A stretch of DNA of 54,426 nucleotides, taken from positions 73,398 through 127,823 of the forward strand of contig JBAZSE010000004.1 in assembly GCA_041662565.1 (NCBI GenBank), read 5' to 3'. The notes beneath the pieces are model-generated. The model was not told the DNA's origin and made no database searches. It was given only the letters and a program-made list of their open reading frames with translations. This document shows, piece after piece, positions 1,798 to 41,654 of the stretch (positions within the stretch are counted from its first letter, which is position 1; each line of letters starts with the position of its first letter). The position numbers and the translations under genes are program-made. This stretch comes from Patescibacteria group bacterium. GTDB lineage: Bacteria; Patescibacteriota; Patescibacteriia; UBA1558; UBA10009.

Positions 1798-1852
1798 AGT
1801 AATTATTTTAAAATAATATCAATCAGCTTGAAATTATGCTGTTTTGTATAGT

Positions 1853-2341
1853 CTAACTATTGAGCCTTTTAATTTGAATTTCATAAAATTTTAAATATTT
1901 TAAAACAATAATATAATGACTAATAATTACTGATGGCGCATTAAATGTTTGTTGAATTCCATGGATATATGTATGGGCACAATTATCTCGCATTTTTTTT
2001 AATGTCCTTAAAGTAGATTTAAATTCTTCGATGTTATCAATTGATTCTTCAATTTTTTCTAATAATCTAATTCCATAAGCATAAATAAGAATTTGACGAA
2101 AATGCTCATAACTAAAACTATTATTTTTTTCCACCTTTTCCTCGAGATACTTACGATTAAAGTCTTTTTTAATGGTTCTTTTTATAAAGAGCGTCAATTT
2201 ATCCATAGTTTGTTCAACCCATCCACAACACTCAATAATTGCCATTTTACTATATATTTTTTGATCGCCTTTAACAATAGACTTACTATATAATCTATCT
2301 AACTTTTTTAATTCCTTCGTTATTTGAGATTCGGCAATCAT
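1853..2341 (-). CDS. HEPN-domain protein (Rx4H motif), putative RNase
   Basis: C-terminal KKMRDNCAHTYIHG contains R-DNCA-H, the Rx4-6H HEPN signature. Its ATG at 2341 directly abuts the TAA of the DUF262 gene. Very AT-rich. Confidence 0.55.
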   Translation of the reverse strand: MIAESQITKELKKLDRLYSKSIVKGDQKIYSKMAIIECCGWVEQTMDKLTLFIKRTIKKDFNRKYLEEKVEKNNSFSYEHFRQILIYAYGIRLLEKIEESIDNIEEFKSTLRTLKKMRDNCAHTYIHGIQQTFNAPSVIISHYIIVLKYLKFYEIQIKRLNS

Positions 2342-3421
2342 TTATTTACCAGAAAAAATTTTTTCTGCTGTTTTTAATCTATCAATAACTTTGCTTTTTT
2401 TAAGAATACCCTCTCGTATGTTCTGTTCACTAAATGATTTGCTATTAATTAATTTTTTATAATATTTTTCAATAACACTGCTTCGTTTATTTTTTAAAGT
2501 ATTTACATTTTTTGCTACACCATATAACAAACCCTCTAAAACCGTATTACTAATATTTATTTTTTTCATCTTTTTATTTATTTTTTCAAGTACTCCCACA
2601 GTGTCATCAAAAAGCAATCGCTTAGTCTCATTATCACTATCAAATCTATGATCATGCATGTAGTCATTTAGAAAAGATGATAGCTTGCCTTCATACTTAT
2701 TTGCTACACCATAGAAAGCAAAAAAACGAAGTATTAATTCAACTGTTTTAAACCTAAGGTCTTTTTTATTTCCACTAATTACTTTCCATTTAGGTGACAA
2801 TGCGCATTCTTTTAAAAACTCATTAAAAGCACCTTGATAGACTGCATTTCTAATCTCCTGATTATTAAGTTTTAATCCACCAGTATTCAATCTATTAAAA
2901 ATCATAAATATATACTCAGAATGCTTTTTTTTAGTATAATCGCATCTTAATATTGTAATTGGTAATGTTAAATTTTCGACACGCTTATATAAATCCGGAA
3001 ACTTCGACTTTATTTCAGAGGTAGTTTTACCAGCTATTCTATTATCAATGTCTTTCGTTTTTGACAAAGTCCAATTCGGATCATTAAGAAATTTAGTAAT
3101 TGTAGACATTCTTTGTAAGCCATCTATAACCTGCCATTTTTGAGATTTATAATCTAAGCTAAAACACATACTTGGAATAGGTAATTGTTTAATCAAAGAA
3201 TCTATAAATCTTGTTTGATCGGTCTCTGGCCATACAAAATTTCTTTGAAAATCTGGATTAATAGTCAAAGTTTTATCATTATGCATTCTATTAAGATCGG
3301 AAGCGGATCTTAATTCGTTATACGCTATTACATCGTCTGGTGGCACCTCTCCTTCATCTATTTGAAAAAAGGTCTCTTCCTCTATTTTTTTTAAATCCTT
3401 TCCTTCCTTGGTCTTTTTCAT
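2342..3421 (-). CDS. DUF262 (ParB-like / GmrSD N-terminal-type) protein without a fused nuclease domain
   Basis: Motifs PDFQRNFVW, VIDGLQRMSTI (DGQQR-type) and FNRLNTGGLKLNNQEIRNA. The ORF track extends to a TTG at 3466. The ATG at 3421 (MKKTKEGK...) is the more likely start. Confidence 0.7.
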   Translation of the reverse strand: MKKTKEGKDLKKIEEETFFQIDEGEVPPDDVIAYNELRSASDLNRMHNDKTLTINPDFQRNFVWPETDQTRFIDSLIKQLPIPSMCFSLDYKSQKWQVIDGLQRMSTITKFLNDPNWTLSKTKDIDNRIAGKTTSEIKSKFPDLYKRVENLTLPITILRCDYTKKKHSEYIFMIFNRLNTGGLKLNNQEIRNAVYQGAFNEFLKECALSPKWKVISGNKKDLRFKTVELILRFFAFYGVANKYEGKLSSFLNDYMHDHRFDSDNETKRLLFDDTVGVLEKINKKMKKINISNTVLEGLLYGVAKNVNTLKNKRSSVIEKYYKKLINSKSFSEQNIREGILKKSKVIDRLKTAEKIFSGK

Positions 3422-3462
3422 ATTTTTGAAATTAATTTTATATAATTTATAATAAATTGAAA

Positions 3463-4890
3463 TCAACTAATAATAGAATCATTATCAAACTCAACCACTT
3501 CCCCATCCATCTGCTCCGGCTTAGGGATGCCAAACTCATTAAGGATAGTTGGAGCGAGATTCAAAATACTAGTATCCATTTTACCGGCTTTAATGCCTTC
3601 TCCGTAGGCCAAAAACAGGCCACGGCGCTCATTTTCGCCTTTCCAATGCGCCGGTGCTTCAAATACGCCATTACCGCCCAAAGAACCGCTAAAATGGGTA
3701 TTAGGGGCTTGATCTACAATTAAATCGGGCGCCAGATCAAAAAACTGGCCGCTATAAACTTCTTCCTTTTTGTAAACTTTTTTAACGATTCGCATGCCAT
3801 TATGCTCCAGCGCTTCCAATTCTTTAATTAATTTTTCTTTAAACGCTTCATCTTTATTTAATAAGTACAGCGGACCCTGGCCCGAAGCAATAACTTGAGA
3901 GTTATCCCAATCAATGCTTTCGGCTTTACCGGCAAATTGAATATGCCCTACATCATCCGGCAACATTTGCTGTAAATTTTTGGGAACCACTTTTTTTACA
4001 AAATCCTTAAGGCCTAAAGTGGTTAGCCATTTGGTGGCTCTGGTTTTGGTAATACCTAACTTTCCTAATTTTGATGTTGCGGTATTTTGTTTAAGCTTTA
4101 AATAACCTTTTTCTTCCAGCCAACTGGAAATATTGAATTTTATTTTAATTTCATTAGTGCCATGATCAGACATAAAATAAAATTTGGCTTCCGGGTATTT
4201 GGCCATTAGCCTACCCACACCTTCATCAATAATTTGCCAGGCCTTAAAAACAACTTCATCGCCCCAATGATAATGCTGTAAAACATTAATCAGATAAACA
4301 GCCACCATGAAAAAATCAAACTTGCCTTGTTCCAATAAGTATTCGGCAACCTGGAATCTAACGGAAATTAAACGATAAATTTCTTCTATCACTTCGGTTG
4401 CACCCTGGCCCATATAGCTGATGTTATGAGGCAAAACAGCGTAATCAAATTTTGATTTTAACAAATTTTCTAACGCAGCCGGATAAGTAAAACCCGATTC
4501 CATGGCATCGGGCCCGCCCGAAACCATAATGCCGTTAATTTTATGAGGCGGATAAGTAGTGGGCATATCAACTACGCCAACTCTGTATCCGGCTTCGCTT
4601 AAGTAATCAAAAATTTCCTTGCCCGTAAATGATTTGGCATTGGGCACGAATATTTTTCGGTTTTTTACATCCACGTTTTCCCACCAAAAAACACCAAGTT
4701 TAGCCGGATTTAAACCAGTAGAAAAACATTTCCAATTGGGCGAAGTAACCGGAGGCAATTGCGACATTAAAACTCCCCAGGTTCCACCTGTTTGTAATTT
4801 TTTAAACGCAGGCATTTTGCCTTCATCAATCCATTTTTGGATATAGTTCCAACTACCGCCATCAAGGCCGATCACGATAACTTTTGGCAT
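3463..4890 (-). CDS. alkaline-phosphatase-superfamily phosphodiesterase / nucleotide pyrophosphatase-like protein
   Basis: Motifs VIVIGLDGGSW, PPVTSPNW (Thr nucleophile context) and FYFMSDHGT (metal site). 475 aa. Confidence 0.7.
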   Translation of the reverse strand: MPKVIVIGLDGGSWNYIQKWIDEGKMPAFKKLQTGGTWGVLMSQLPPVTSPNWKCFSTGLNPAKLGVFWWENVDVKNRKIFVPNAKSFTGKEIFDYLSEAGYRVGVVDMPTTYPPHKINGIMVSGGPDAMESGFTYPAALENLLKSKFDYAVLPHNISYMGQGATEVIEEIYRLISVRFQVAEYLLEQGKFDFFMVAVYLINVLQHYHWGDEVVFKAWQIIDEGVGRLMAKYPEAKFYFMSDHGTNEIKIKFNISSWLEEKGYLKLKQNTATSKLGKLGITKTRATKWLTTLGLKDFVKKVVPKNLQQMLPDDVGHIQFAGKAESIDWDNSQVIASGQGPLYLLNKDEAFKEKLIKELEALEHNGMRIVKKVYKKEEVYSGQFFDLAPDLIVDQAPNTHFSGSLGGNGVFEAPAHWKGENERRGLFLAYGEGIKAGKMDTSILNLAPTILNEFGIPKPEQMDGEVVEFDNDSIIS

Positions 4891-5009: not shown

Positions 5010-6128
5010 TTAATTAATTAACTGATTAAATGTATTGACAATCTCTTGACTCAAATGATTAACATTATGGTATTTTACCACCAAATCACGTAATTTTAAA
5101 CCAATAGCTTGCCTTTGTTGAATGGGCAAATTGATGATATTGGTAATTTTTTTTGCCAAATCCAAATAATCTTCTCTGGCAAAAACAAATAATTGTTTTT
5201 CCGCTTCTGTTAGTTCGCTGGGTAATAAAATTTCTGATGTTGCGGCATTGGAATCAACCACAATTTTTCCAACCGCCATAGCTTCCACAATGCTTTTATC
5301 CAAACTATTACTGCCTCCGGGATTAACCACAAAATTTGCTTCGTTAATTAATTTAGGTAATTGCCAATTGCTTACTGCTCCCATAAATTCAACCACTTTA
5401 TCCAAACCCAATTTTTGCCGTAAAGCCAATAACTCCTGCAAATATGAATCATCGCCTTGAGCAATGGTGGCGCCATATACTTTGGATTGAATTAAAATTT
5501 GGGGCTGGTTTTTTAAAACTTCGGCCAGCGCTTTTAACAGCAGCTCGTATTTGCGAACCGGTGAAACTCGGCCAATAGAAATAATCTTAAGAGTTTGACT
5601 ATCAACTGCAACATCATTTGATGGCTGAAATTTATCGGTATCAATCCCCTGCCCAACAACCCGTCTTTTATTTGTTTTAACATTAAACGCCACGGAAACG
5701 CTGGTTAAAACCCGATCCACAAAATGCCTGGCAAATTTTGCTCGTCCATTTAATTTAGCGTGGGCTTTCCACCAAATTAAACCAATATGATTAATTTTTA
5801 ACAACAATCTAAAAGGAGAAAGCAGGTAAACATAAATTTCATTCATGTGCACAAAAATTCCATTGATTTTCTTGTTAAAAATCAAAGGCAAAACAAAGCC
5901 GTAGAAATTTTTTAAATATTGCCATCTGTTGTTTCCAACTTCTTTGCCTAACGAAAAAACTTCGCAGTTGCTTGGCAATTCTACCCGGCCTTTAAACAAA
6001 CAAACAATGTAAAGTTTTTCCACCTGACCAGCTAAACTAAATAAATAACTGTGGATGGCGCCCAAAACATGATCGTTAAGATCAACCTTTTGGGTAATGT
6101 ATAAAATTTTTAATTTATTTTGATTCAT
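5010..6128 (-). CDS. glycosyltransferase, GT4-like (GT-B fold)
   Basis: C-terminal NPGGSNSLDKSIVEAMAVGKIVV motif. 4-nt overlap with the upstream GT gene. Confidence 0.7.
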   Translation of the reverse strand: MNQNKLKILYITQKVDLNDHVLGAIHSYLFSLAGQVEKLYIVCLFKGRVELPSNCEVFSLGKEVGNNRWQYLKNFYGFVLPLIFNKKINGIFVHMNEIYVYLLSPFRLLLKINHIGLIWWKAHAKLNGRAKFARHFVDRVLTSVSVAFNVKTNKRRVVGQGIDTDKFQPSNDVAVDSQTLKIISIGRVSPVRKYELLLKALAEVLKNQPQILIQSKVYGATIAQGDDSYLQELLALRQKLGLDKVVEFMGAVSNWQLPKLINEANFVVNPGGSNSLDKSIVEAMAVGKIVVDSNAATSEILLPSELTEAEKQLFVFAREDYLDLAKKITNIINLPIQQRQAIGLKLRDLVVKYHNVNHLSQEIVNTFNQLIN

Positions 6129-7252
6129 TTTTTTGGTAATTGAGCCAATTGCCAGGATTTTAAATATAAATCCAAATTATCCTGCTCGCTAGGTAGTGAA
6201 TTAACAGTTAACAAGACCTGCCGTGATAAACGCTGGCGCAGAGCAGGATCTTTAGCCAGATCCAATAACTTGGCGGCTAAACTTTCTGCTGTCATGTTTG
6301 GTAAAACAAAACCGTTAATGTTATCTAAAATAACTTCGCCGGCCGGAGTTACATCGGTTGTAATTGTTGGCAAACCGCATGATGCGGCCTCAATCGGTGT
6401 TCGCATATAGCCCTCGCTTTTGGAAGTAACAACCAACACATCCGCTGTTTTATAAAACGAAGCCAAATCATCTTTCCAGCCGTAAAACAGAACTTTGTTT
6501 TCTAGTATTAAACTTTTAGCTTTTAGTTTTAGATCTTCTTCTTCCGAACCGGATCCGACAATCACTAACATCACTTGCGAATAATCTTTTACTAGCAAAT
6601 CGATGCTCTCAATTAACAAACCAAAATTTTTAACGCTAACCAAGCGCCCAACAGCCAAAATAATAAATTGGCCTGGAAATTCTTTATGCAAATCAATTTG
6701 GACCGGCGCGTTAGCTATTTTTTGGCAATCAATAAAAATCGGCACTGTAATAATTTTTGCCAACGAAATTTTAAATTGAGCCAAACTAGCGGTAATTTTT
6801 TTACTGACCGTTCTAATGGAATCAGCTTGAGGCAATAAAAATTTGGCTAAAAATAAACGGCAAGAGTTAAGCAAGCCGGTGCGATAAACATTATGCTGGC
6901 CAAAGTAATCGCCGTGCAGCTGCAAATTCAAACCCAAATTGAATTTTTTCTTTAACCAATAGCCAACCAAACCCGACTCAAAAGGATCCTGGGTGGAAAC
7001 TATATCAATTTTTTCTTGCGCCACAATTTTTTTCGACAACTTCCAGGCGTCATAAATATAACAAAATTTTGTTTTTGAATTTGTTGGATAAATTTTTAAT
7101 TTGGAGTTTGAAGTAACCGGGGTAAAACCTTTTTTGGTAAAAACCACCACAAAAATCCTATCCACCAACTGGCTGTATTTAACCAAACGCTGGTAAACAT
7201 CGCTATTGGGCTTAAATAAATTTCGATCCGAGCCGATGATTAATACTTTCAT
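6125..7252 (-). CDS. glycosyltransferase family 4
   Basis: VVTSKSEGYMRTPIEAASCGLPTITTDV is an E-x7-E type GT4 motif. Overlapping stop/start on both sides. Confidence 0.8.
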   Translation of the reverse strand: MKVLIIGSDRNLFKPNSDVYQRLVKYSQLVDRIFVVVFTKKGFTPVTSNSKLKIYPTNSKTKFCYIYDAWKLSKKIVAQEKIDIVSTQDPFESGLVGYWLKKKFNLGLNLQLHGDYFGQHNVYRTGLLNSCRLFLAKFLLPQADSIRTVSKKITASLAQFKISLAKIITVPIFIDCQKIANAPVQIDLHKEFPGQFIILAVGRLVSVKNFGLLIESIDLLVKDYSQVMLVIVGSGSEEEDLKLKAKSLILENKVLFYGWKDDLASFYKTADVLVVTSKSEGYMRTPIEAASCGLPTITTDVTPAGEVILDNINGFVLPNMTAESLAAKLLDLAKDPALRQRLSRQVLLTVNSLPSEQDNLDLYLKSWQLAQLPKK

Positions 7253-8370
7253 ATTGATGAAATTAGCAATAAAAATCTTTCCAGCAATTGCTCTGGGCCG
7301 TAGCTGGTATCAATTTTACTTATGGCGTGCTTAATTGAGGCGTAATGATCGGAATCCAAAGAAAGCAAATAATCCAGCTTGGCTGTTAATTCATCCGCGT
7401 TTAAAGGATACTTTAAAAAAAGCAGTTTTTTATCCCAATCATCAAAAACTCCGGAATGTTTGGTCATTAGTACAGGCGTTTTTAAAGCAATTGATCTAAA
7501 AACTATGTTGGGTGAAATATCCGAAATAGAAGGTAAAATCAGCCACTGGCTTTGCCCAATTAAATTATCCAATTCTTGACCAAAAACCGGTTTTTTAAAA
7601 ATAACCCTGTTTTCCAGTTTTAATTCTTTAACTTCCTGCTTTAACTTATTCTCTTCCGGACCTTCTCCTATCAATAATAATTGATAATTAATATCCTGAA
7701 GCTTGGCAAAGGCCGAAATTAATCGGCTTAAATTTTTTAATTTGGTAAAACGCCCGGCAAAAATCAATTGTTTTTTTAATTCAATATTTTCATCAGAAAT
7801 AATAACTTTAGGGAAAGCGTTAGGCAGCATTAAAAACTTATCAGCATTTATGCCGTAATGCTCTTCAATAATAGATTGCTGATAAGCTGTGGTGGTAATT
7901 AATTTTTCCGCCCGCCTAAAAATAAACCTGATTAATAAAAAATAAACAGCTTCAATTACATTAAAATTGGTTCTGTAATAATCGGTTAAAGTAACTTCTT
8001 TGTTAAATTTATTAACGGCCGTTTCCCATAAAAAATCTCCACCCAATCGAACGGAAAACTTAAAACTTTTAAACAAGCTAGCCGCTGCCACCGGTAAGGC
8101 CGCACTAAAGGTATCAAAAACAACCACTTTATCGCTTACAGAAACATTTTTTAAGACAATAAAAAAATATTTTAAATAATTCCAAAACCTAAATGAACGA
8201 TAAATCCTGATTACCGGAAAATCCAGCTTTTCCTGATTTTTTTTATCGGCGTAAGTTAAAACAAGCGGCTGCTGGCCGCGTTTAAAAAGTTCCGTTGCCA
8301 AATCTTTAACCAAAATGGCCGGCCCGCCGATTTCCGGAAAAAAAATGCCGGTGGCTAAAACAATTTTCAT
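7249..8370 (-). CDS. glycosyltransferase, GT4-like (divergent)
   Basis: GT-B-like C-terminal half (LLIGEGPE...WLILPSISDISPNIVFRSIALKTPVLM). Translationally coupled within the GT operon. Confidence 0.6.
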   Translation of the reverse strand: MKIVLATGIFFPEIGGPAILVKDLATELFKRGQQPLVLTYADKKNQEKLDFPVIRIYRSFRFWNYLKYFFIVLKNVSVSDKVVVFDTFSAALPVAAASLFKSFKFSVRLGGDFLWETAVNKFNKEVTLTDYYRTNFNVIEAVYFLLIRFIFRRAEKLITTTAYQQSIIEEHYGINADKFLMLPNAFPKVIISDENIELKKQLIFAGRFTKLKNLSRLISAFAKLQDINYQLLLIGEGPEENKLKQEVKELKLENRVIFKKPVFGQELDNLIGQSQWLILPSISDISPNIVFRSIALKTPVLMTKHSGVFDDWDKKLLFLKYPLNADELTAKLDYLLSLDSDHYASIKHAISKIDTSYGPEQLLERFLLLISSI

Positions 8371-9305
8371 AAATTACCCTGATAATATTCAATGGTTTTT
8401 TTAAGACCGTCTGTAAAATTAACTTGGGGTTCGTAACCAAGTAATTTTTTGGCTAACCTGATATCCGCCAAAGATTGTTTAATATCCCCTGCCCTCTCGG
8501 GCCCATGAATAGGTTCAATTTTTGTATTTAGGCAATTATTTATTTCTTCAACCAGTTGATTTAAAGAAATGGAATTATTGCAGGCAATATTTATAACTTC
8601 ACCCTTGCCCACTTGCGATGATTCCATGGCTAAAATATTGGCCAAAACATTGTTATCAACAAAAGTAAAATCCCGCGAAATTAAACCGTCGCCGTTGATG
8701 GTAGGGCGTTCTCCTTTTAAAATCTGTTTAATAAACAAAGGAATCACGGCGCTGTAAGGAGAATTAGGATCTTGATTGGGCCCAAAAACATTAAAATATC
8801 TTAAAGAAACCGTTGGCAAATCATAAAGTTTGGCAAAAACTTTAACCAGTTGTTCGCCGGCATTTTTATAAACAGCGTAAGGCGAAATTGGCATAGCAGG
8901 CAATGTTTCCACCTTTTCCACAGCCGATTGATCTCCGTAAATGGAAGATGAAGAAGAATAAACCAATTTTTTAACTTTAAACTCAACGCATTTTAATAAT
9001 ATTTTTAAAGTAATGGTAACGTTATTTTCTAAACTTAATAAAGGACTTTCAATAGAACGAGGCACCGAGGGCAAAGCAGCAGTATGCAAAACATAATCAA
9101 CGTCCTGCATGGCTTGATTGATTTTATCTTCTGCCAAAATTGAGCCCTCAATAAATTCTATTTGGCTTAAAACTTCGGCTAAATTTTCTTTGCGGCCAGT
9201 AATTAAATTATCAATCACCGAAACTTTGTAACCTTTACGCAAAAGCTCTTTAACTATATTGGAACCGATAAATCCCGCACCGCCTGTTACTAATACTTTA
9301 GACAT
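8367..9305 (-). CDS. NAD-dependent sugar-nucleotide 4-epimerase (extended SDR; TviC/WbpP-like)
   Basis: VLVTGGAGFIGSN Rossmann motif, SPYAVYK (YxxxK), FNVFGP. Confidence 0.8.
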   Translation of the reverse strand: MSKVLVTGGAGFIGSNIVKELLRKGYKVSVIDNLITGRKENLAEVLSQIEFIEGSILAEDKINQAMQDVDYVLHTAALPSVPRSIESPLLSLENNVTITLKILLKCVEFKVKKLVYSSSSSIYGDQSAVEKVETLPAMPISPYAVYKNAGEQLVKVFAKLYDLPTVSLRYFNVFGPNQDPNSPYSAVIPLFIKQILKGERPTINGDGLISRDFTFVDNNVLANILAMESSQVGKGEVINIACNNSISLNQLVEEINNCLNTKIEPIHGPERAGDIKQSLADIRLAKKLLGYEPQVNFTDGLKKTIEYYQGNL

Positions 9306-9427
9306 AATATTGACTACGAATTACGAATTATTACCAATATACGAATACAAAGTTAAATTTTAGCTTAACCATTTGTATCTCAATAACCACTAATTTGTAT
9401 ATTCGTAATGATTCGTAATTAGTAGAA
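9306..9427. repeat. TACGAAT-rich palindromic element, copy B
   Basis: ctacgaattacgaattattaccaatatacgaat ... tttgtatattcgtaatgattcgtaattagtag; ~35-bp arms with few mismatches. Same position as copy A, directly upstream of a start codon. Confidence 0.7.
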
Positions 9428-10705
9428 TTATAAACACTTATACACAATCCCTAAATTCTTTGCTTCCTGCTTATCATAAAACCTTTTTAAATCAAACAAA
9501 ATCGGAGCATCATTCATCATGCCCTTTAATTTCTCTAATGTCAGTTCTTTAAATTCATGATGCGGACTAAAAACAATTACGGCATCAACCTTTGGTACAT
9601 CAGCCAGTTTGCTATTGGTCATGCCGAAATAATGTTCTATAAATGAATCCTTAACCAACGGTTCATGGCCAAAAAGTTCAATATTAAAACCCTTAAGCTC
9701 CGCCATTAATTCTTTAACTTTGGAATTTCTTAAATCAGGGACGTTTTCTTTAAAAGTTAAACCTAAAATTAAAATTTTGGCGTCTTTTAATACCTTGCCC
9801 GCGGCATTTAAGGATTTAATAACCACTTCGGCCACATGATGAGGCATGTAATCGTTAACGCCTCGGCCGGCTAAAATAACTTGCGGATGATAGCCCAGCT
9901 CCAAGGCCTTATGGGTAAGGTAATATGGATCAACGCTAATACAGTGCCCGCCAACCAGGCCGGGAAAATATTTAACAAAATTCCACTTGGTGCCGGCTGC
10001 CTCAATTACTTCGCGAGTATCAATATCCATACGTTCAAAAATCAAAGACAATTCATTCATTAAGGCAATATTCAAATCCCGCTGGATATTTTCGATTACT
10101 TTAGAGGCCTCGGCGGTTTTTAAATCGGAAACAGGGTAAATTGTATTGATAATGGAACCGTAAACTTCGCTAACGATTTTTAACGCTTCGGGCGTGGAAC
10201 CGCTAACGATTTTAACGATCTTATCAATGGTATGCTCTTTATCTCCCGGATTAACTCGTTCCGGCGAATATCCTAGGAAAAAATCCTGATTGTATTTTAA
10301 GCCGGATTCTTTTTCTATCAGTGGCATGCAAAATTCTTCGGTACAGCCCGGATAAACAGTGCTTTCATAAACCACAATGGCACCCTTAGTTAGATTTTGA
10401 CCAACGATGATTGAGGCCTTTTCTACCGGCCCTAAATCGGGATTTTTACTGTTATCAATAGGCGTAGGCACGGCCACAATAATAAAATTGGCTTCTTTGA
10501 TAACTTCCGGCGTGGCGCTGTATTTGATGTTATATTCCTTAAGTTTATCACCCACTTCATCGGTTCTATCGTAGCCCCTTTTTAGTTCCTCAATTTTTTC
10601 CACATTGGAATCGTAACCAAAAACCTCATATTTTTTGGATAACAAACAGGCCAAAGGCAAACCAACGTAACCCAAACCAACTACGCAAATTTTAGTGTTA
10701 TTCAT
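9428..10705 (-). CDS. nucleotide-sugar 6-dehydrogenase (TviB/WbpO/UDP-GlcNAc-GalNAc dehydrogenase-like)
   Basis: ICVVGLGYVGLPLA, GGHCISVDPYYL catalytic Cys motif, 425 aa. Confidence 0.8.
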   Translation of the reverse strand: MNNTKICVVGLGYVGLPLACLLSKKYEVFGYDSNVEKIEELKRGYDRTDEVGDKLKEYNIKYSATPEVIKEANFIIVAVPTPIDNSKNPDLGPVEKASIIVGQNLTKGAIVVYESTVYPGCTEEFCMPLIEKESGLKYNQDFFLGYSPERVNPGDKEHTIDKIVKIVSGSTPEALKIVSEVYGSIINTIYPVSDLKTAEASKVIENIQRDLNIALMNELSLIFERMDIDTREVIEAAGTKWNFVKYFPGLVGGHCISVDPYYLTHKALELGYHPQVILAGRGVNDYMPHHVAEVVIKSLNAAGKVLKDAKILILGLTFKENVPDLRNSKVKELMAELKGFNIELFGHEPLVKDSFIEHYFGMTNSKLADVPKVDAVIVFSPHHEFKELTLEKLKGMMNDAPILFDLKRFYDKQEAKNLGIVYKCL

Positions 10706-10826
10706 AATTCGTCATTGCGAGGAGCCGAGCGCAACGAAGGCGACGAAGCAATCTCGCTTGCTAAAAAGTTAAAAAAATTATACCCTACTATTATACTTAG
10801 AAAGTAATTAAAAGTCAACCACAAAA

Positions 10827-12011
10827 ATGACCGATTCTAGAATAAAAATCCTTTATTTAGTGACTCAATCAGAATGGGGCGGTGCCCAGGAATATGTTTT
10901 TAATTTAGCCTTTAATCTGAATAAAAACCAATACACCCCCTTGGTTTTGGCTGGTCGCGAGACCTTGAGCGACCAAAGGGAGTCGAAAGGTGGCAATGGC
11001 GCCCTTTTTAATGCTCTAAAAGCCCAAAAATTGCCCTACCAAGAGCTTAAATGGGTTAAACGGGCAATTAATCCTTTATTTGATTTACTGGCCGTTTTTG
11101 AATTAATTGGCATATTTAAAAAAGAAAAACCAAATGTGATTCACTTGAACAGTTCTAAAATCGGTTTTTTAGGAAGTTTGGCAGGAAAAATTTATCAAGC
11201 AACCGCCAATCATGAATTACGAATAATTTATACAGCTCATGGCTGGGTGTTTAATGAACCGCAACCTTGGTTAATCAGCAAAATCTATTTTTGGATAGAA
11301 AAAATTTCTTCTGCTTGGAAAGATGTGATTATTACCGTTTGCGAAGCAGACAAACAAATTGCTTTAAAAAATAATTTTAAAACCAAAATTGTTACTATCC
11401 ACAATGCAGTTGATTCTCAACAATTAAACTTTTTGGATAAACAAACGGCTCAAACAAAATTGTGGCAACTAACTAAGGATAATAATGAGTCGCTACACAA
11501 AGAGGCAAAAATTATTTTTACTATCGCCAACCTTTACCCTACCAAAGGCATTAATTATCTGATTGAAGCAGCCGCTATTTTAATTCCCCAACATCCTAAC
11601 TTGGTATTTATGGTTGCCGGAGAGGGTCAAGAACGAATTCGTTTGGAATCTTTAATTTTAAAACACAAACTAACCGACAATTTTTTCTTGCTTGGCTCTG
11701 TGTTAAACGCTTACCAATACCTTAAGGCCGGCGATTTATTTGTTTTGCCTTCGGTTAAAGAAGGTTTGCCTTACGCCATACTGCAAGCTAAGGCGGGTCA
11801 GGTGCCGATTATTGCTACCCGCGTTGGCGGCCTGCCAGAAATATTACCTCAAAACTGCCTCATCCCGCTGGATAATCGTACGGGCGGGGTCCTCCCGCCC
11901 ATCCTGGCGGATAAAATTGAATCCTTCTTAGCAGGCCGCCTACCAATACCTGAATATAAAATTGATTCCTTTAGAGAATTTCTAGAAAAAACCATTACCT
12001 TATATAAATAA
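10827..12011 (+). CDS. glycosyltransferase family 4
   Basis: FVLPSVKEGLPYAILQAKAGQVPIIATRVGGLPEI. Followed by a perfect 38-nt palindromic terminator. Confidence 0.8.
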   Translation: MTDSRIKILYLVTQSEWGGAQEYVFNLAFNLNKNQYTPLVLAGRETLSDQRESKGGNGALFNALKAQKLPYQELKWVKRAINPLFDLLAVFELIGIFKKEKPNVIHLNSSKIGFLGSLAGKIYQATANHELRIIYTAHGWVFNEPQPWLISKIYFWIEKISSAWKDVIITVCEADKQIALKNNFKTKIVTIHNAVDSQQLNFLDKQTAQTKLWQLTKDNNESLHKEAKIIFTIANLYPTKGINYLIEAAAILIPQHPNLVFMVAGEGQERIRLESLILKHKLTDNFFLLGSVLNAYQYLKAGDLFVLPSVKEGLPYAILQAKAGQVPIIATRVGGLPEILPQNCLIPLDNRTGGVLPPILADKIESFLAGRLPIPEYKIDSFREFLEKTITLYK

Positions 12012-14262: not shown

Positions 14263-17200
14263 TTAGTTCAAGGACCTAGATTTGTTTAAGGTCTTGATAT
14301 TATAGCCATTAAACCAGTCAGCTGACTTAGTAACAGCAGTACCATCATAAGTGCTGGAGGCATTAAGATCTGTGTGGGATAAATTGCCATTTACACCCGT
14401 AGAATCAGACCAAATCATATAAGATCCAGTAGATTCCGCACCATTTGCATTAGAGGACAAGCAGTATTTGCTTTGGGCTTTAGAAGGGGAATTGCCCACA
14501 CAATTTGCTTTCAGGTACTTATAACCAGTAGTGGTGTTGGAAGCAGTATCGCCATTAAATAGGTATGTCCAAACGGCATCACCATTACTGCTTGTGCCGG
14601 TTTCAAAATGACCAACGTTAGCAGTTAAAATGTAATACTTGCTTTGACCACTAGAAATAACGCGTTCTTGGTTAAAGACCAAAATAACATCGTTGGTACT
14701 GGAAGCACCGGATCCAGCAGCTGCAGAATTGAGAGCGGTATTCTGATACAGATAACTATTAGCATCGCTTAACTTACCGCCAAGAACACCAGTAGCTACG
14801 GTAGTTGTTGCGCCCCAACCATTATAGATCTGATACGCTTTAGCACCTGTATCAGCTTGAGTTAAAGCAGCGGCTGCGTTATAGCTATCACCCTCTAAAA
14901 TCTCAAAATTGCTGAGATAAAGGGTTGAAGTATCCTTTACAACATCGGTCATACCCAATTTAAAGGATAATTTCTTCAAGGTCAGGTCTGTGCCTTCATT
15001 AGCCGTAACCTGGAATTTATACAATTGGTTGACACCACCAGCTAAATTACCGCCGGTTTCATCAGCAGTAAAGACTGGTAATGTTCCATGAACAACCATT
15101 AAGTTTCCCGGAACATCAACGATACTAGAGGCATTACTCACAGAGGTAATAGATGTTCTGGAAGAACCAGCGCCCTTGGCCTCAAAATTACTATCTTCAT
15201 CAAACATAGCAGAAACAACATCACCAGTATAAGCCGCTGTGTTTTGATTAATAGCTGCCAAATTAAAGTATACGTTTACTACTTTAGAACCAATTGGAAC
15301 ATACAACGGATTAGCAGTAATATTAAAGTCAGCTACACCACTAATTAACTGTTGAGTAGCAAAAACAATTGTATTGTCTTTGTTTGTATACTTAATAGTT
15401 ACACTAGTAACCGACCTGTCATTAGTAGCGGCTTCTTTTTGTTCAATTCTTAACTTATTAACGTTAAAGGCCTCATTAGTGGCCTGGAACTTTAAATTAA
15501 GAACAGGAACATTTAAAGTTGAAGCAACCACATTGGCTGCATCCGGATTACTGTCAGCAGTAACATTTAAGGTACCGGATTCTGCAATCACAATGTAAGT
15601 GGAGGAGGTAACGGCAGTAGCCGAGCCATTACCACTGGTAATAACGTAAGCTCCGCCAGTACTGTTTTTCATAGTAACGGAATTGTTACTAGCATCAACA
15701 GCGGTAATGCCAGTATTATCCTTAAAGTTCATCTTAACATATTTTGACATACCAGTGGTGCCTTCACCACCAGTATCACCATTAGCAAAAGCTGAAGAAG
15801 TAACATCTCCAACCACGGCCAAAATTTTTGTTTCACCAGCCGGAATAGTCCAGTTCATATCAGAGAAAGTAACAAGTCCGGCAGTGCTCATTGATTCAAG
15901 GGAACCATTGAGATTGGTGGCTAAAGCGCTATCAGCACTCTTATCATAAATGCGCAAATTAGTTACCAAATTATTGGCGTAAACTGTACCAACAGCGGCC
16001 ATACCCGCTTCCCTAACATCAGCCACACTACCCACAGCCATAGAGCTGGTCGCGCCAGCGCCATCGCCATCAACATAACCATACATAGTCATGCCGGAAA
16101 TAGTCACGGATGAACCGGATAAGGCCTTAAGGGCAAATTCGGCTAAGGTAACTTTATTAGTTCCTTGAATAATGGTAGTACCAGCTGAAGGAGTGCCGGA
16201 AGCCAATGACACATAGAGGTCAGCGGCTGCTACTGTTTGGCTTGTACCTTGAGAAAAGGTAGAAGGAGCAATATCAGTAACAAATTGGTTATTGTCGGTG
16301 TTCTTAATTGCGGTTGGGCCAAAAGTGTAAAAACTGGTAACACTTGAACCCAAGGTAGCAAAATAAGTAGCGGCAGTTAAGCTGGAGTGCAAATCGGCCT
16401 TAATAGCAAAGTGTCTGGTTACATTAGCAGTTAAGGTAAAGTAATCAGTAAAGGTGTTATATACACCAGCACCGGTGCCCAAATCGCCAGTAAAGCTGGA
16501 ACAATTAACTGCGCTGGTGCTCTCGCCATTGTCCGTATCAACTACTTTAACGTTAGTAATATAGTCGTTGGAGCAATCATCAGCAGTAGTATCAGCGGCG
16601 GTCTTGTCTAAGTTAGCACCGGCAGCACCGGAGTTGCTAAGTTCAACTCTTAAACTTCTAATTTCAGCATTAACTTTGGAAGTAACACCAAAATTCATTA
16701 AAGAAACATTGGTCGCACCAGCGGCAACGTTACCGGCAATAGGACCATCCATAGTAACGGTGAACTGTCCGCCTTGGACTGTAACTTCAGAATAATAAGT
16801 GCTAGTACCATCATAAGTACCAGTATCAGTACCGCTAGTACTCATATCAACTGTTGCACCATAACCATAAGTAGCACCAACAGCGTATAAGTCAGTAGTT
16901 TGATCCAAGTAAGTTCTAATGGTATCAGTATTTCTAGCTGCGCCATTAATATCAGCGTAGACGTAGAAAATTCTATTAGTATTCTTAGCTAAAGTGAAAG
17001 GAGTGGCTAAATCAAAGACCACATAACCCTTGGCGTTAACACTGCTAACGGATGCAAGTTTAGTGGTAAGTTGATAAAGCGACAAGTTTGATAAGTAGGC
17101 GTTGTTTAAAGTACCGGCCTCATAAAGAGTAATTCTCTTTATTGTCAAATCCTCACCGGTTCCGGCGGATAATTTAAACTGAGCAATCTTGGCATTTAAT

Positions 17201-18450
17201 TGGCCAACTGAAGGGTTGGACAGAGTGCCATCCTTATCAATTTCCACATCGCCGGAGTTAGCCGAACCAATACTTGTGGTTTTGCTAACAATTGGGAATG
17301 AACCGTTAACAACAGCAGTAGAAGTAATATCAGTAGAGTTAACTTGAAAGTAGCTGAAATGACCAGAGTAAGTAGCAGTAGCGCCGGTATCAGCACTTAA
17401 GGTTAAGGTCTTGGTAGAACCAGCAGGAATAGCTAAGCCAATATTGACAAATTGAGCCATATTGGTGGTGCTATTTAGGGTTTTACCATTGGTTAATCTG
17501 GTAGCGCCATCATACAAATAAAGATTTGTATATTGGGCGGAAGAACCAATGCCTAATCTTTTAACACTCAAAGTGTTAAGGGTAACAGCGCCGTCAGCAG
17601 CCGCGGTCAAATTAATTTTCATTAACGGGACGTTGGTAGCTAAACCTGGAACTGTCTGATCGCCTGGGGTATCAGAAGCCAAAGCTACTGTTAAGCCAGA
17701 ACCGGAAATTGGGGTAGCAGAACCACTACCAGCCATAGGAGCAGCTAAAGCTGATTCCATGGAAGTAACGGAAGAGCCATCGGAATAACCGGACAAATCA
17801 GAAGCGGTTTGCACAAAGGCCATGTTAAATCTGTTGGCGGTAAAACCAGCATCAGTAACAGGGCGCTTGGTGGAACCATCAATGTAATAGGTTTGGGAAG
17901 AAGCAGCTGTTTTAACCAAAGAACCAGTTGGGTAGTTTGAAGAGCTGGTTAATTGGGCGCCGACGGTGTAATAACCGTACAAAAAGTTAGGCAAGCCTAA
18001 AATTTGGCTTTCCCAAGATGAACCAAAGAATTTAACAGCAGTAGCGGCAGAGTCAACGTGCATAATGGTGCCGTTGGTACCAACTGCGTAAACTTTAGGA
18101 TCATCAACGCTAAAGCCGCCATCGGCTTTTAACGAAACAAACTGCACCAACTTGGTGCCTGGTCTTACAACGATTGTTGAGCCCAGGTCATAGCCGGACA
18201 ATTCATCGGTGGAAACGGTTTTTACGCTGGAAAAATCTTTATACCAGGTAAAATACTGATTCGCATGATGGAAAGGATGCCTCTTTAAGTTGGAATCCAA
18301 GTAATAAACAGCGGTGGTGTTTGAGGCAGTGATTAAATCACCAGGCACGGCCACATTGGCGGCGGTGGTGGTTAAAGCAAAACCAAAAGTACCAAAAGCT
18401 GTTAAAACCATCATGGAGATCAAGAACGATTTCTTTAAGAAATTACTCAT
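14263..18450 (-). CDS. giant (1395 aa) secreted repeat-rich surface protein (S-layer/adhesin-like)
   Basis: N-terminal signal/anchor FLISMMVLTAFGTFGFALTTTAANVA and AAGGAG RBS. Ser/Thr/Ala/Gly/Asn-rich with recurring ~100-aa beta-type modules. One uninterrupted 4.2-kb ORF. Confidence 0.8.
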   Translation of the reverse strand: MSNFLKKSFLISMMVLTAFGTFGFALTTTAANVAVPGDLITASNTTAVYYLDSNLKRHPFHHANQYFTWYKDFSSVKTVSTDELSGYDLGSTIVVRPGTKLVQFVSLKADGGFSVDDPKVYAVGTNGTIMHVDSAATAVKFFGSSWESQILGLPNFLYGYYTVGAQLTSSSNYPTGSLVKTAASSQTYYIDGSTKRPVTDAGFTANRFNMAFVQTASDLSGYSDGSSVTSMESALAAPMAGSGSATPISGSGLTVALASDTPGDQTVPGLATNVPLMKINLTAAADGAVTLNTLSVKRLGIGSSAQYTNLYLYDGATRLTNGKTLNSTTNMAQFVNIGLAIPAGSTKTLTLSADTGATATYSGHFSYFQVNSTDITSTAVVNGSFPIVSKTTSIGSANSGDVEIDKDGTLSNPSVGQLNAKIAQFKLSAGTGEDLTIKRITLYEAGTLNNAYLSNLSLYQLTTKLASVSSVNAKGYVVFDLATPFTLAKNTNRIFYVYADINGAARNTDTIRTYLDQTTDLYAVGATYGYGATVDMSTSGTDTGTYDGTSTYYSEVTVQGGQFTVTMDGPIAGNVAAGATNVSLMNFGVTSKVNAEIRSLRVELSNSGAAGANLDKTAADTTADDCSNDYITNVKVVDTDNGESTSAVNCSSFTGDLGTGAGVYNTFTDYFTLTANVTRHFAIKADLHSSLTAATYFATLGSSVTSFYTFGPTAIKNTDNNQFVTDIAPSTFSQGTSQTVAAADLYVSLASGTPSAGTTIIQGTNKVTLAEFALKALSGSSVTISGMTMYGYVDGDGAGATSSMAVGSVADVREAGMAAVGTVYANNLVTNLRIYDKSADSALATNLNGSLESMSTAGLVTFSDMNWTIPAGETKILAVVGDVTSSAFANGDTGGEGTTGMSKYVKMNFKDNTGITAVDASNNSVTMKNSTGGAYVITSGNGSATAVTSSTYIVIAESGTLNVTADSNPDAANVVASTLNVPVLNLKFQATNEAFNVNKLRIEQKEAATNDRSVTSVTIKYTNKDNTIVFATQQLISGVADFNITANPLYVPIGSKVVNVYFNLAAINQNTAAYTGDVVSAMFDEDSNFEAKGAGSSRTSITSVSNASSIVDVPGNLMVVHGTLPVFTADETGGNLAGGVNQLYKFQVTANEGTDLTLKKLSFKLGMTDVVKDTSTLYLSNFEILEGDSYNAAAALTQADTGAKAYQIYNGWGATTTVATGVLGGKLSDANSYLYQNTALNSAAAGSGASSTNDVILVFNQERVISSGQSKYYILTANVGHFETGTSSNGDAVWTYLFNGDTASNTTTGYKYLKANCVGNSPSKAQSKYCLSSNANGAESTGSYMIWSDSTGVNGNLSHTDLNASSTYDGTAVTKSADWFNGYNIKTLNKSRSLN

Positions 18451-19000: not shown

Positions 19001-20299
19001 TTAATCTTCTAAAAATGGCAAGGTTAACGTGCTGGAAGTGGGCTGTTCGGAAAAAATCAATGAAGGATTAACCTTTACTCCTTTAGGATTAATAATCGGT
19101 AAAGTTGTTTCTAAACTGGATGTGGAATCCTTAACGTTTACAGTCGGTACTTTAGGCGCTCCAACTTTTAACAAATTAATGGTACTGCTGGAAGTAGTGG
19201 CTGATTGCAATAAGGCATCATTAATTACAGAAATATCCCCGATTTTTGAAACAATATCTTTTGATTGCTTGGCAATAACATTACTGGCTTTTACTTTTTC
19301 CAAAGCACCGGTTAAATTATCGTTGTTTAACAAACCCTTGGCTTCATCCAAAATAACCTGGGCTTTACCGGAATTTTCAACAGCATCGGTTAATTCTTTA
19401 TTTAAGGCCTTAACTTCCACTTTTTTAGGATCATCTTTTTTGGTGGCCAATGAATCGGCCAAGCCAACTTGTTCGGCCTGCGCGCCCAACTGATTGATAT
19501 TTTCCTGTGCGTGATTAATAACTTCGGACAAAACATCTTTAACCTGATCAGCTGCCCCGCTTTGGCCTTCAATCGGCTGATTTTGAATTTGATTAACGGC
19601 TACTTCCAAACTGGCAACGCCCGTTGCTTCAATAACCGATTGAGCTTCGGATACAGTTTTATTAACATCCTGGGTTGGCACCGAAACTTTAATTTGTTCC
19701 AAACTTTTAACGGCTTCTTGGCCGTTTTGGGTAATTTGCAAAGCCAATTGAGTTACTTCTGATTTTTCTTGTTGATCTTGGCCTGAATCCTCTTTAGCAA
19801 TGGCCAATGAATTAGCGGCTCCGGCAATATTGCCCTCTAAATACTTAACTATTTTATTAATATGTTGAACTTTTTCTTCAGCGGAAATTTCATTATCATT
19901 GGCTATATGCCCCAGTTGAGCTTCTCTTTTTTCGGCATAAAACAAGTGGACATTGATTTCATCTTTAGGCGTAAAAGCCAATAAAATGTTGATTTTTTCG
20001 GCTGTCCGATCCAGCAAGCCCATGGCTCCAACAGGCGGAATTTCGGCTTGGGCAACCAAATTGGTGCCAAACATTACTGCTACTAAAGTAACTAAAGCCG
20101 TCATTTTAACCGGAGATGGCATTAATTTGCCGGACCAAATAACAAAAGACAAATAAAACTTGTTAGACCAGGTTGGTTCCAAAGCAATGGTCTCGGTTTC
20201 AATTTTTTTCAACAAAAAAGACCGGGCATTTTCGGTCCATTTGGAAGAAGGTGAGATTGTTTCCAGTTTTTTAAATTGTTTAAGAAGGCGTTCGGGCAT
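19001..20299 (-). CDS. membrane-anchored anti-sigma-like protein (DUF5667-like coiled extracytoplasmic domain)
   Basis: 13 nt downstream of the ECF sigma gene. Single TM (VKMTALVTLVAVMFGTNLVAQA) followed by a long Q/E/K/A-rich helical region. Confidence 0.5.
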   Translation of the reverse strand: MPERLLKQFKKLETISPSSKWTENARSFLLKKIETETIALEPTWSNKFYLSFVIWSGKLMPSPVKMTALVTLVAVMFGTNLVAQAEIPPVGAMGLLDRTAEKINILLAFTPKDEINVHLFYAEKREAQLGHIANDNEISAEEKVQHINKIVKYLEGNIAGAANSLAIAKEDSGQDQQEKSEVTQLALQITQNGQEAVKSLEQIKVSVPTQDVNKTVSEAQSVIEATGVASLEVAVNQIQNQPIEGQSGAADQVKDVLSEVINHAQENINQLGAQAEQVGLADSLATKKDDPKKVEVKALNKELTDAVENSGKAQVILDEAKGLLNNDNLTGALEKVKASNVIAKQSKDIVSKIGDISVINDALLQSATTSSSTINLLKVGAPKVPTVNVKDSTSSLETTLPIINPKGVKVNPSLIFSEQPTSSTLTLPFLED

Positions 20300-39452: not shown

Positions 39453-41654
39453 ATGGCCCATAAAATTGCTCAACTTTCCATTCACGATCTTAGACACGCC
39501 CATACTACGGGCGAAATTTTTGTCCAACCGGATCCCGGAGGTCAAAATTTGGGTGTGCTGCTTATTTTGCTGGAATTGGCCACCAATACCCCGGCCGACC
39601 AGGAATTGATGCGGCTTTTTTTGGAAATCGCCTACAATGCCTACGAGCAATCCCAGCTACACCAGCCGGAAAAAAAATTGGAAAATATTTTAGCCGCCTT
39701 AAACCAAGAGCTGCCCGCCCAAGCCGCAATTATCAACAAAACTCCGGCTTGGAAAAGCGGCAAAACCAAACTGCCCATTGGCATAAATTGCTTTGTGGGT
39801 TTAGCCGAAGATAACAATCTTTACTTTTCAACCTACGGAAAAATTTTTGCTTATTTAATCCGTCCCACTTTAATAAAAAAAATTAATGAACCAACGGCCG
39901 AAGCAAACGGCCAAAACATGTTTGATTTTACCTTAAACGGAGCTCTTCAGCCGGATGATCGTCTTTTAATTGCCAGCCAAAGCGTTTTGGATTATTTATC
40001 CTTGGAAAAAATAAAAAAAATAATTTCCACCCTGCCGCCCCAAAGCTCCAGCGCCCACATGACCAATATTTTGGAAGCCGCTCCAAAATCAGCTTCTTTT
40101 TTTGCTTTAATTTTGCAAACCGTAGCGGCCGAAAAATCGTCTTTAGAAGCAAAAACCATTCCACTTAAAACTGCCAATGTTACGGGCTCCAAAAAATCCA
40201 TTGATCAAATGCTTTTAACTCAGGCCGAAACAGAAAAAATCCTAACTCCCCCTTCCTTTTGGCAAAGCATCAAGGATAAAATAACGGAACAATTGGCCGA
40301 ACGCAAAAAAAATTCTGTCCGCACTAAAAACGGTCAAACCATTTTAAACAATCCTGCTCTGGAAAAAATAAACCAACCTGACAGGCCGTATTTTTCAACT
40401 TTAATTAAAACTTCCGGTTTAAAAAAATTTACCACATCCCTTAAACCTTTACTTAAAATCTGGCTGATTCTATTAGATCCTCAAGAACGTCAGCAAGCAG
40501 GCAGCAGATTGGCTAAAAAGGCAGGAAGCGTTATTAATTATTTTAACCGCTTATCTAAAAACCAAAAAATTGCTATTGTCAGCGTTATTGTTCTAACAAT
40601 GTTTTTTTCGGAAAGTTTGATTTGGCAAACGCATAGAACCGAAAAAAACAAACAAGAACAATTTTATCAAACCACCGTTGCTCAAATTAACGGCAAAAAA
40701 AATGATTTGGAAGCCGCGCTGATTTACAAAGATGCCCAAAGAACCAAAGAAATTTTAGCCGAAATTTTAAATCTGGCAAATTCTTTGCCTTTAAATAATC
40801 CTGTTCATTTGAGCGAAACGCAAAAAATAAAAAGCGAGGCCAATGCGTTGATGGCCAAAGTTTGGAAAATAACCGAGATCCCCGAACCATTAAGCTTGAT
40901 TAATCTGCGGGAAATAAATTTAACCGCCGAAATGAAAAGCTTGAATTTTAAAGACGATTATTTGTTTGCTTTTGGCAATCAAAACCAAATCATTGCCGTT
41001 AACGTTAACACCAGCAAGCCCTTGATTTTGGATAATTTGACTTTAGCGGTAAATAAAAGCGCTTTATTCCCCAAAATAAAAAATTTAATTTTAAGCACAC
41101 AGGATAACAAATTTTTTACCTTGGAAAATAACCAAATCATCCCCTTAATTGCCCAATTACCAGTTGGTTTAACACAAATCGATGATTTGACTTTTTACCT
41201 TGATAAAATGTATCTGCTGGACAGGCAAGCCAAGCAAATTTTCCGCCTCACTTACTCGGGCGGCGAATTTAAAAATCCGGTTAGCTGGCTAAAAGAAAGT
41301 TTGCCGGTGGAACAAATTACCTCTTTAGCCGTGGATGGGGTTATTTACGCCATGCAAGATAATGGGCAGATTTTAAAACTGGCCTCTGGCAAAAAAGAAG
41401 GCGAAATCAAACCTATTTTAGAACCGGAACTTAATAAACCCGCAAAAATTTATACCGACGAAAATAGCCAATACCTATACATTTTAGACCAGGCCAATAA
41501 ACGGCTGGTAGTTTTGGATAAACAAGGTGAAGTTATTGCTCAGTATCATTCCGAAAAATTCAGCAATTTAAAAGATTTGATTGTTAGGGAAAAAGACAAA
41601 AAGGCCTACTTACTGAATGATTCGCAAATTTACGTTATTGCCCTGCAGCCATAA
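39453..41654 (+). CDS. large membrane protein: N-terminal cytoplasmic domain, one TM, C-terminal beta-propeller-like repeats
   Basis: 733 aa. TM IAIVSVIVLTMFFSESLIW. The C-terminal half has recurring blade-like strings (MYLLDRQAKQIFRL, IYAMQDNGQILKL, LYILDQANKRLVVLDKQGEVI, AYLLNDSQIYVIAL). Confidence 0.55.
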   Translation: MAHKIAQLSIHDLRHAHTTGEIFVQPDPGGQNLGVLLILLELATNTPADQELMRLFLEIAYNAYEQSQLHQPEKKLENILAALNQELPAQAAIINKTPAWKSGKTKLPIGINCFVGLAEDNNLYFSTYGKIFAYLIRPTLIKKINEPTAEANGQNMFDFTLNGALQPDDRLLIASQSVLDYLSLEKIKKIISTLPPQSSSAHMTNILEAAPKSASFFALILQTVAAEKSSLEAKTIPLKTANVTGSKKSIDQMLLTQAETEKILTPPSFWQSIKDKITEQLAERKKNSVRTKNGQTILNNPALEKINQPDRPYFSTLIKTSGLKKFTTSLKPLLKIWLILLDPQERQQAGSRLAKKAGSVINYFNRLSKNQKIAIVSVIVLTMFFSESLIWQTHRTEKNKQEQFYQTTVAQINGKKNDLEAALIYKDAQRTKEILAEILNLANSLPLNNPVHLSETQKIKSEANALMAKVWKITEIPEPLSLINLREINLTAEMKSLNFKDDYLFAFGNQNQIIAVNVNTSKPLILDNLTLAVNKSALFPKIKNLILSTQDNKFFTLENNQIIPLIAQLPVGLTQIDDLTFYLDKMYLLDRQAKQIFRLTYSGGEFKNPVSWLKESLPVEQITSLAVDGVIYAMQDNGQILKLASGKKEGEIKPILEPELNKPAKIYTDENSQYLYILDQANKRLVVLDKQGEVIAQYHSEKFSNLKDLIVREKDKKAYLLNDSQIYVIALQP

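Follow-up and report, generated by a model that had tools for sequence, protein, structure and literature searches.

PD-T4-2 is a two-gene phage-defense system of Escherichia coli and the described system closest to the locus reported here. The original report (Vassallo 2022, PMC9519451) describes its isolation from E. coli ECOR65 by functional selection, its protection against phage T4 when supplied from a plasmid, and the return of T4 plaquing when it is deleted in native ECOR65; it is listed there as 'DUF262, HEPN', a validated system of two coding sequences and 1540 bp. A related arrangement had been noted as early as 2013, when the RiboL-PSP-HEPN family was recorded 'in operon with ParB' (Anantharaman et al., Table 1, PMC3710099), and reviews place PD-T4-2 both among the DUF262 systems without DUF1524 and among the HEPN systems. 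In this study, we analyzed a stretch of 54,426 nucleotides (nt) from a Patescibacteria group bacterium (GCA_041662565.1, contig JBAZSE010000004.1, positions 73,398 to 127,823 of the forward strand), which is called the window below. Our subject is a 1569-bp cassette of two adjacent minus-strand genes in it, A and B, which an original prediction made from the bare sequence had singled out as a candidate defense module.

Identification of the cassette as a PD-T4-2 system

Open reading frame (ORF) calling across the 54-kb window showed that A and B abut and that both ORFs are full length. Gene A (2342-3421, minus strand, ATG start) encodes a PD-T4-2_A-type protein of 359 amino acids (aa), and gene B (1853-2341, minus strand, ATG start) encodes a PD-T4-2_B-type HEPN protein of 162 aa. 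In the PADLOC search, protein A matched PD-T4-2_A (PDLC04027) at 3.2e-145, with residues 1-357 aligned to profile positions 1-362 of 363, and protein B matched PD-T4-2_B (PDLC04028) at 1.7e-46, with residues 1-159 aligned to profile positions 1-165 of 168. B was matched by PD-T4-2_B profiles alone, and the sole other strong match of A was the related NsnA, nearly full length and far weaker (1.8e-60; 203.2 against 481.7 bits). Both proteins are matched end to end, and the PADLOC result is decisive for the PD-T4-2 assignment. The original prediction of a co-transcribed-looking DUF262 plus HEPN two-gene defense cassette was right in outline and is borne out by Pfam, PADLOC and motif conservation. 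It had also held that the pair could not be placed in a named system, and this part fell: PD-T4-2 matches both proteins over their full length, and with it goes the novelty that the prediction itself had made dependent on the lack of such a match.

For comparison with E. coli we used the pair of strain MDR_56, which is not the ECOR65 prototype. A was 50% identical to the MDR_56 protein over its full length (7e-127), and B was 36% identical to the HEPN partner, again over the full length (3e-33). The MDR_56 pair matched the PD-T4-2 profiles at 2.3e-162 (A) and 7.9e-64 (B), and PGAP labels its members 'DUF262 domain-containing protein' and 'HEPN domain-containing protein'. It lies at NZ_CP019903.1 4757127-4758762 (locus L093), within a P4-like satellite inserted at ssrA, where psu (polarity suppression) is on one side of the pair and the integrase gene on the other, and the pair was carried by 17 of 5426 complete E. 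coli genomes. The Patescibacteria cassette is a diverged copy of an already named and experimentally validated system.

Domains and invariant motifs of the two proteins

Pfam found a single domain in A, GmrSD_N (PF03235/DUF262, 9.4e-26, aa 48-195), in agreement with the predicted lack of a fused DUF1524/HNH half. The protein is made up of this DUF262/ParB-Srx nucleoside triphosphate (NTP)-binding domain at aa ~48-195 and an all-helical C-terminal domain at aa ~200-359. All of the DUF262 motifs that had been read from the sequence were present on the minus strand, and they fall on invariant columns of an alignment of 31 family sequences. Motif I, PDFQRNFVW (3230-3256, aa 56-64), carries invariant P56, Q59, R60, V63 and W64; motif II, VIDGLQRMSTI (3098-3130, aa 98-108), carries invariant D100, G101, L102, Q103 and R104; and motif III, FNRLNTGGLKLNNQEIRNA (2843-2899, aa 175-193), carries invariant F175, R177, L178, N179, G182, L185 and N187-N192. 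DGLQR is the form that the DUF262 DGQQR NTP-binding motif takes in the A family, and the same DGLQR is found in the E. coli protein. In the AlphaFold (AF2) model of A (pLDDT 87.9), alpha and beta elements are mixed in the N-terminal half, and the C-terminal half is helical. When this model was searched against the PDB with Foldseek, the top 12 matches were BrxU, ParB-CTP/CDP complexes and Noc, with KorB at ranks 19-20; the E-values were weak (best E 0.03, prob 0.92) though the ranking was consistent, and BrxU was the best structural match. A type IV enzyme of the GmrSD type was rejected as an identity for the cassette: DUF262 is present (PF03235, 9.4e-26), but Pfam matched no DUF1524 His-Me or HNH nuclease domain in A, in B or in the neighboring genes, and the C-terminal half of A is helical.

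B probably belongs to the RiboL-PSP-HEPN branch and is all alpha-helical in its AF2 model (pLDDT 93.9, seven helices). The predicted signature R118-D-N-C-A-H123 (1973-1990, minus strand), a catalytic-type Rx4H motif, was present, and its R118 and H123 were invariant in 69/69 family sequences, as were E37, W41, E43 and G90 in the same 69. At E <= 0.1, 23 of 32 B-family members matched PF18735 (HEPN_RiboL-PSP). One of ten tested homologs, from Microcystis, scored above the gathering score of that profile (35.2 against 28.4 bits), and the other nine scored 16.7-25.3 bits. Among the weak Foldseek matches of B were the HEPN toxins 8xeh, 1wty, 7bxo and 8xdj (E 0.8-3.2, TM 0.32-0.44), and a Foldseek search against viral structures gave no significant match. 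The family is large, with 500 representative clusters, all of about 165 aa, in an exhaustive search; a word-indexed search with B returned B alone.

Co-inheritance of A and B

Relatives of A were found in 342 species-level genomes, and we analyzed the loci of the best 80 of these 342. They span Planctomycetota, Bacteroidota, Cyanobacteria, Acidobacteriota, Chloroflexota, Nitrospirota, Proteobacteria and one Saccharibacteria genome (L069), which already carries the same pair. A relative of B lay directly 3' of A on the same strand in 77 of the 80 loci, usually with a spacing of -11 to +11 nt, so that the expected co-conservation of the pair was found across phyla. Two of the three loci without B are contig ends and only L044 truly has no B, which gives 77 of 78 assessable loci. 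The pairwise identity matrices of A and B were correlated (r = 0.70), a value that 0 of 2000 Mantel permutations reached, and the window proteins A and B have their nearest relative in the same genome, a Planctomycetes metagenome-assembled genome (MAG; L001). This adjacency, the correlated divergence and the common nearest relative indicate that the pair was inherited and transferred together. Mean identity within the family was 53% for A and 39% for B, and the window copies of both keep every family-invariant residue. Altered copies were also seen among the relatives: in Microcystis sp. LSC13-02, the B gene is broken up into two ORFs (L026, 5031-5524), an Alphaproteobacteria MAG has a B of just 108 aa (L037, 5078-5404), and L044 (694-1914), a Caldilineaceae MAG, has a 406-aa A and no B.

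Base composition of the cassette

The cassette coincides with a trough in guanine plus cytosine (GC) content at 1800-3450, with 27.7% GC against a window mean of 38.3% (z = -3.65); B has 25.8% and A 28.5%, while the flanking genes have 39.9% and 37.0%. It is the lowest-GC 1.57-kb stretch of the 54 kb, and no other 1.57-kb window falls below 33.1%. The GC profile is thus not flat, and in its composition the cassette is foreign to the host genome, as its AT-richness had been taken to show. Hand counts of 9-12 G+C per 60 nt had caught a real dip, but these values are its extremes; the means are 15.2 in B and 17.1 in A, and the two flanks have 23.8 and 22.6. Forty-seven loci had 2 kb or more of sequence on both sides, and in every one of them the cassette was lower in GC than its flanks, with a mean deficit of 10.7 points in hosts of about 28% to 65% GC. 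A deficit in 47/47 loci makes the AT-richness a family trait, typical of mobile defense genes. One could go further and see in this family-wide bias more than a passing trace of transfer: it might be a selected property, for instance one by which a toxic RNase module would be silenced or poorly expressed until infection, or else all copies might come from one AT-rich reservoir or vehicle. We consider this unlikely; if it were true, the Patescibacteria copy would be a working defense in an ultra-small episymbiont genome with few other recognizable systems.

The original prediction also pointed to a 9-mer, TTGAAATTA, at both edges of the cassette. The positions were correct (1828-1836 and 3426-3434), but this 9-mer occurs three times in the window, where 3.1 occurrences are expected by chance, and no longer or better flanking repeat was found around the cassette, other repeats being at chance level. 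The repeats are therefore no evidence of insertion.

Genomic site

Relatives of the host whose phosphodiesterase is 67-87% identical to that of the window keep the upstream glycosyltransferase-glycosyltransferase-phosphodiesterase block and have entirely different genes downstream of it. They lack A and B as well as the three small genes found after B in the window, so the site is a variable region rather than a clean insertion between conserved genes. Of the proposed island between housekeeping-type genes, the conserved upstream block thus stood and the clean insertion did not. ORF calling and Pfam found no integrase or transposase in the genes beside the cassette. In a related Patescibacteria genome, on a 963-kb contig (Ga0209142_1000001; L087, 6508-11212), an 813-aa protein without a PADLOC match, a small ORF and a type III-like DNA methyltransferase (PADLOC 5e-58) lie downstream of the phosphodiesterase. 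The picture suggests a hotspot for defense-type cargo. As for the host, the nearest named relatives of the housekeeping protein PBP2 of the window are in Patescibacteria, Parcubacteria and Komeilibacteria, which makes the Patescibacteria guess of the original prediction a reasonable one.

Taken together, we conclude that the cassette very probably belongs to the PD-T4-2 family of anti-phage defense systems, was acquired horizontally and is intact, in a variable region of a Patescibacteria (candidate phyla radiation, CPR) chromosome.

Gene structure and expression signals

The TAA stop of A (2344-2342) immediately precedes the ATG of B (2341-2339), confirming the predicted junction, and translational coupling of the two genes is probable. 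For A, the choice of start codon is ambiguous. An alternative ORF (2342-3466, minus strand) begins at a TTG and encodes 374 aa, so that the segment 3422-3466 (minus strand) is either a 41-nt spacer past the phosphodiesterase stop or an N-terminal extension of 15 codons from TTG 3466, a start that would overlap the phosphodiesterase stop by 4 nt (TTGA). One gene caller gives A as 359 aa (L081), while a 374-aa version is also recorded (P0002); an exact-sequence lookup of the 374-aa form returned no record. The 15-residue extension is not conserved among the homologs in the 31-sequence family alignment, in which 359 aa is the usual length, and ATG 3421 is therefore the preferred start as judged from the alignment. 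A lookup of the B sequence further revealed the same genome, with an identical cassette, in a second sample (L081).

No Shine-Dalgarno sequence was recognizable for the cassette genes, and Rfam revealed neither an RNA antitoxin nor any other RNA close to the cassette, its only matches being two distant tRNAs. The best sigma-70-like match, TTGAAA-16-TATAAT (11/12), lies at 3426-3453 on the plus strand, in the spacer upstream of A and antisense to the phosphodiesterase gene, and is probably a by-product of AT-rich sequence.

Neighboring genes and other features of the window

Just 3' of the cassette, a minus-strand gene (1279-1797) encodes a 172-aa protein with a weak match to the RelA/SpoT N-terminal HD profile (TIGR00691, E 3.9e-4, far below the cut-off). 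This gene and the two that follow it (808-1272 and 463-795) are absent from the syntenic site in relatives, and none of them adjoins PD-T4-2 elsewhere. We rejected a functional link of the neighbors (the 172-aa HD-like protein, the 154-aa and 110-aa proteins and the phosphodiesterase) to the cassette, as they never accompany it elsewhere and have no PADLOC matches. Upstream, a sugar and surface-polysaccharide cluster (5010-12011) contains several GT4 glycosyltransferases, an epimerase/dehydratase and a UDP-glucose/GDP-mannose dehydrogenase, and its proximal part is syntenic in relatives. Farther away, two full-length 2,3-bisphosphoglycerate-independent phosphoglycerate mutases of 524 and 518 aa are encoded in tandem on the minus strand (50051-51625 and 51676-53232), both matching iPGM_N and Metalloenzyme; one would not expect a glycolytic enzyme to be duplicated in tandem in a genome of the ~1-Mb class. 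Three ORFs of 1395, 733 and 432 aa (14263-18450, minus strand; 39453-41654, plus strand; 19001-20299, minus strand) had no Pfam match at 1e-5 and no PADLOC match.

Proposed mechanism and points against it

In other HEPN enzymes, such as DARNA, dimerization creates a composite RNase center from the Rx4H site. Going by the domain families, A of the PD-T4-2 cassette would be a nucleic-acid- or NTP-dependent sensor or switch that responds to phage nucleic acid or to an infection-linked state. It would hold a B dimer and then release or activate it; upon infection, the composite Rx4H site of this dimer would cleave RNA (tRNA or mRNA), and translation and phage production would thereby come to a halt. 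A physical A-B complex would agree with the abutting codons and with the correlated divergence of the two proteins.

Several results weigh against the assignment or against the roles proposed for the two proteins. B itself gave no Pfam HEPN match even at E <= 1, and its model found no significant match to a solved HEPN structure in the PDB with Foldseek (best E 0.23). Searches of PDB sequences with the A-family and B-family profiles returned nothing significant. Counts of promoter- and terminator-like sites around the cassette were no higher than in shuffled sequence, and none stands out. In the literature we found no biochemical or mechanistic work on PD-T4-2, and the portion of PMC9519451 drawn on here does not state whether the E. 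coli system works by abortive infection or by direct immunity. The identities with E. coli given above, moreover, are to the MDR_56 pair instead of the prototype. With no significant Foldseek match, the probable HEPN membership of B rests on its motif, the family-level Pfam matches and the PADLOC profile. The check that the original prediction had proposed for this 162-aa protein was accordingly positive for PADLOC PD-T4-2_B and for the PF18735 matches of 23 of its 32 relatives, and negative for a Pfam match of its own and for a significant fold match.

Alternative explanations

The cassette might be mainly a toxin-antitoxin or addiction module, with B as a HEPN RNase toxin kept inactive by A, stabilizing mobile DNA, and phage defense secondary or absent in the host. 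HEPN toxins with a neutralizing partner are common, HEPN-MNT structures are among the weak fold matches of B, the stop and start codons abut in an A-then-B order that is strictly kept, and the AT-rich mobile character recurs in every host, with the E. coli copy residing on a satellite. However, neither Pfam nor PADLOC matched an MNT domain or any other known antitoxin domain in A, and A is more conserved than B (53% against 39%), which is unusual for an antitoxin. Vassallo et al. keep PD-T4-2 outside their TA-like (toxin-antitoxin-like) systems, and the E. coli system protects its native strain against T4. We consider this explanation unlikely, although the toxin-antitoxin and defense readings are not mutually exclusive. 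A HEPN-MNT type II toxin-antitoxin system in particular was rejected, as the partner here is a ParB/DUF262 protein and no nucleotidyltransferase was matched by Pfam or PADLOC. The roles could also be reversed, with A as the effector, a ParB-like DNase or nickase that attacks phage DNA in the style of type IV restriction, and B as a regulator or a dispensable arm. A is indeed a DUF262/GmrSD_N protein whose best structural neighbor is the type IV enzyme BrxU, the PADLOC REase_II profile matches it at 3.6e-11, and some ParB-fold proteins have been described as nucleases (PMC3710099); the prototype, moreover, is active against T4, whose DNA is modified. Yet GmrSD, BrxU and SspE are held to cut with their DUF1524 His-Me domain (PMC10952713), which is absent here, while the Rx4H motif of B is invariant in 69/69 sequences, which argues for a catalytic role, and B is kept beside A in 77 of 78 assessable loci. 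A as the effector is, in our judgment, quite unlikely.

An inactive cassette, left over from an earlier transfer, would suit the very small host genome, the lack of a recognizable promoter, terminator or Shine-Dalgarno sequence, and the broken copies elsewhere (B split in L026 and truncated in L037). Both ORFs are nevertheless full length with all family-invariant residues kept, and an independent sample (L081) contains the identical cassette, so we hold a relic to be very improbable. The nearly full-length NsnA match of A (1.8e-60), together with the ParB-DUF262 plus helical C-terminal architecture common to A and NsnA (PMC12065111), might instead suggest a remnant or variant of Menshen (NsnABC) with A as NsnA. 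PD-T4-2_A, however, scores far higher (481.7 against 203.2 bits), and no NsnB ABC ATPase or NsnC lies nearby, the genes downstream of A encoding the HEPN protein B and small proteins without a PADLOC match or ATPase domain; the Menshen study, for its part, treats PD-T4-2 as a separate DUF262-centered system (PMC12065111). With the ATPase (NsnB) and effector (NsnC) genes missing, membership in Menshen is excluded, and a derivation from it is barely credible.

Significance

Standard tools such as PADLOC and DefenseFinder would annotate this PD-T4-2 pair automatically, and on its own the identification is of little importance. Its value lies in the divergence: an intact variant at 50% and 36% identity to the E. 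coli type that keeps the invariant residues gives a sharper list of PD-T4-2 residues to mutate. It also adds to the cases in which candidate-phyla bacteria, with genomes of ~1 Mb, have picked up a compact defense module at a variable site of the chromosome.

Comparison with known systems

GmrSD, BrxU and SspE have in common with the cassette an N-terminal DUF262 ParB/Srx NTP-binding domain with DGxQR, but their DUF1524 nuclease domain is absent here and the nuclease-type partner is a separate HEPN protein. With a separate HEPN partner in place of DUF1524, the target is likely RNA and not modified DNA. Menshen differs in being a three-gene system with the NsnB ABC ATPase and the NsnC inPIN-effector, whereas the cassette has two genes. 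The small helical Rx4H domain recalls other HEPN defense RNases (DARNA/PD-T7-3, ApeA, HepT-MNT and Csm6), with R118/H123 in B at nearly the same position as R117/H122 in DARNA, and RNA cleavage would be expected as in these systems, although none of them has a sequence match or a significant structural match to B. The candidate sensor of the cassette, in addition, is a separate ParB-like protein and not a fused C-terminal domain, an MNT antitoxin or a CARF domain. With the RiboL-PSP-HEPN family (PF18735), the cassette shares the PF18735 matches of B-family members, the conserved Rx4H motif and a ParB-type neighbor as recorded in PMC3710099; the B of the window has diverged too far for the Pfam profile to match it and is not fused to an endoribonuclease L-PSP domain. 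PD-T4-2 of E. coli differs in sequence, at only 50% (A) and 36% (B) identity, and in its setting, the E. coli copy lying in an enterobacterial P4-like satellite and the present one in Patescibacteria without adjacent integrase or satellite genes. The two agree in a DUF262/ParB-like A followed by a HEPN B of about 165 aa, in the DGLQR and Rx4H motifs, in size (1569 against 1540 bp), and in a composition and context typical of mobile DNA.

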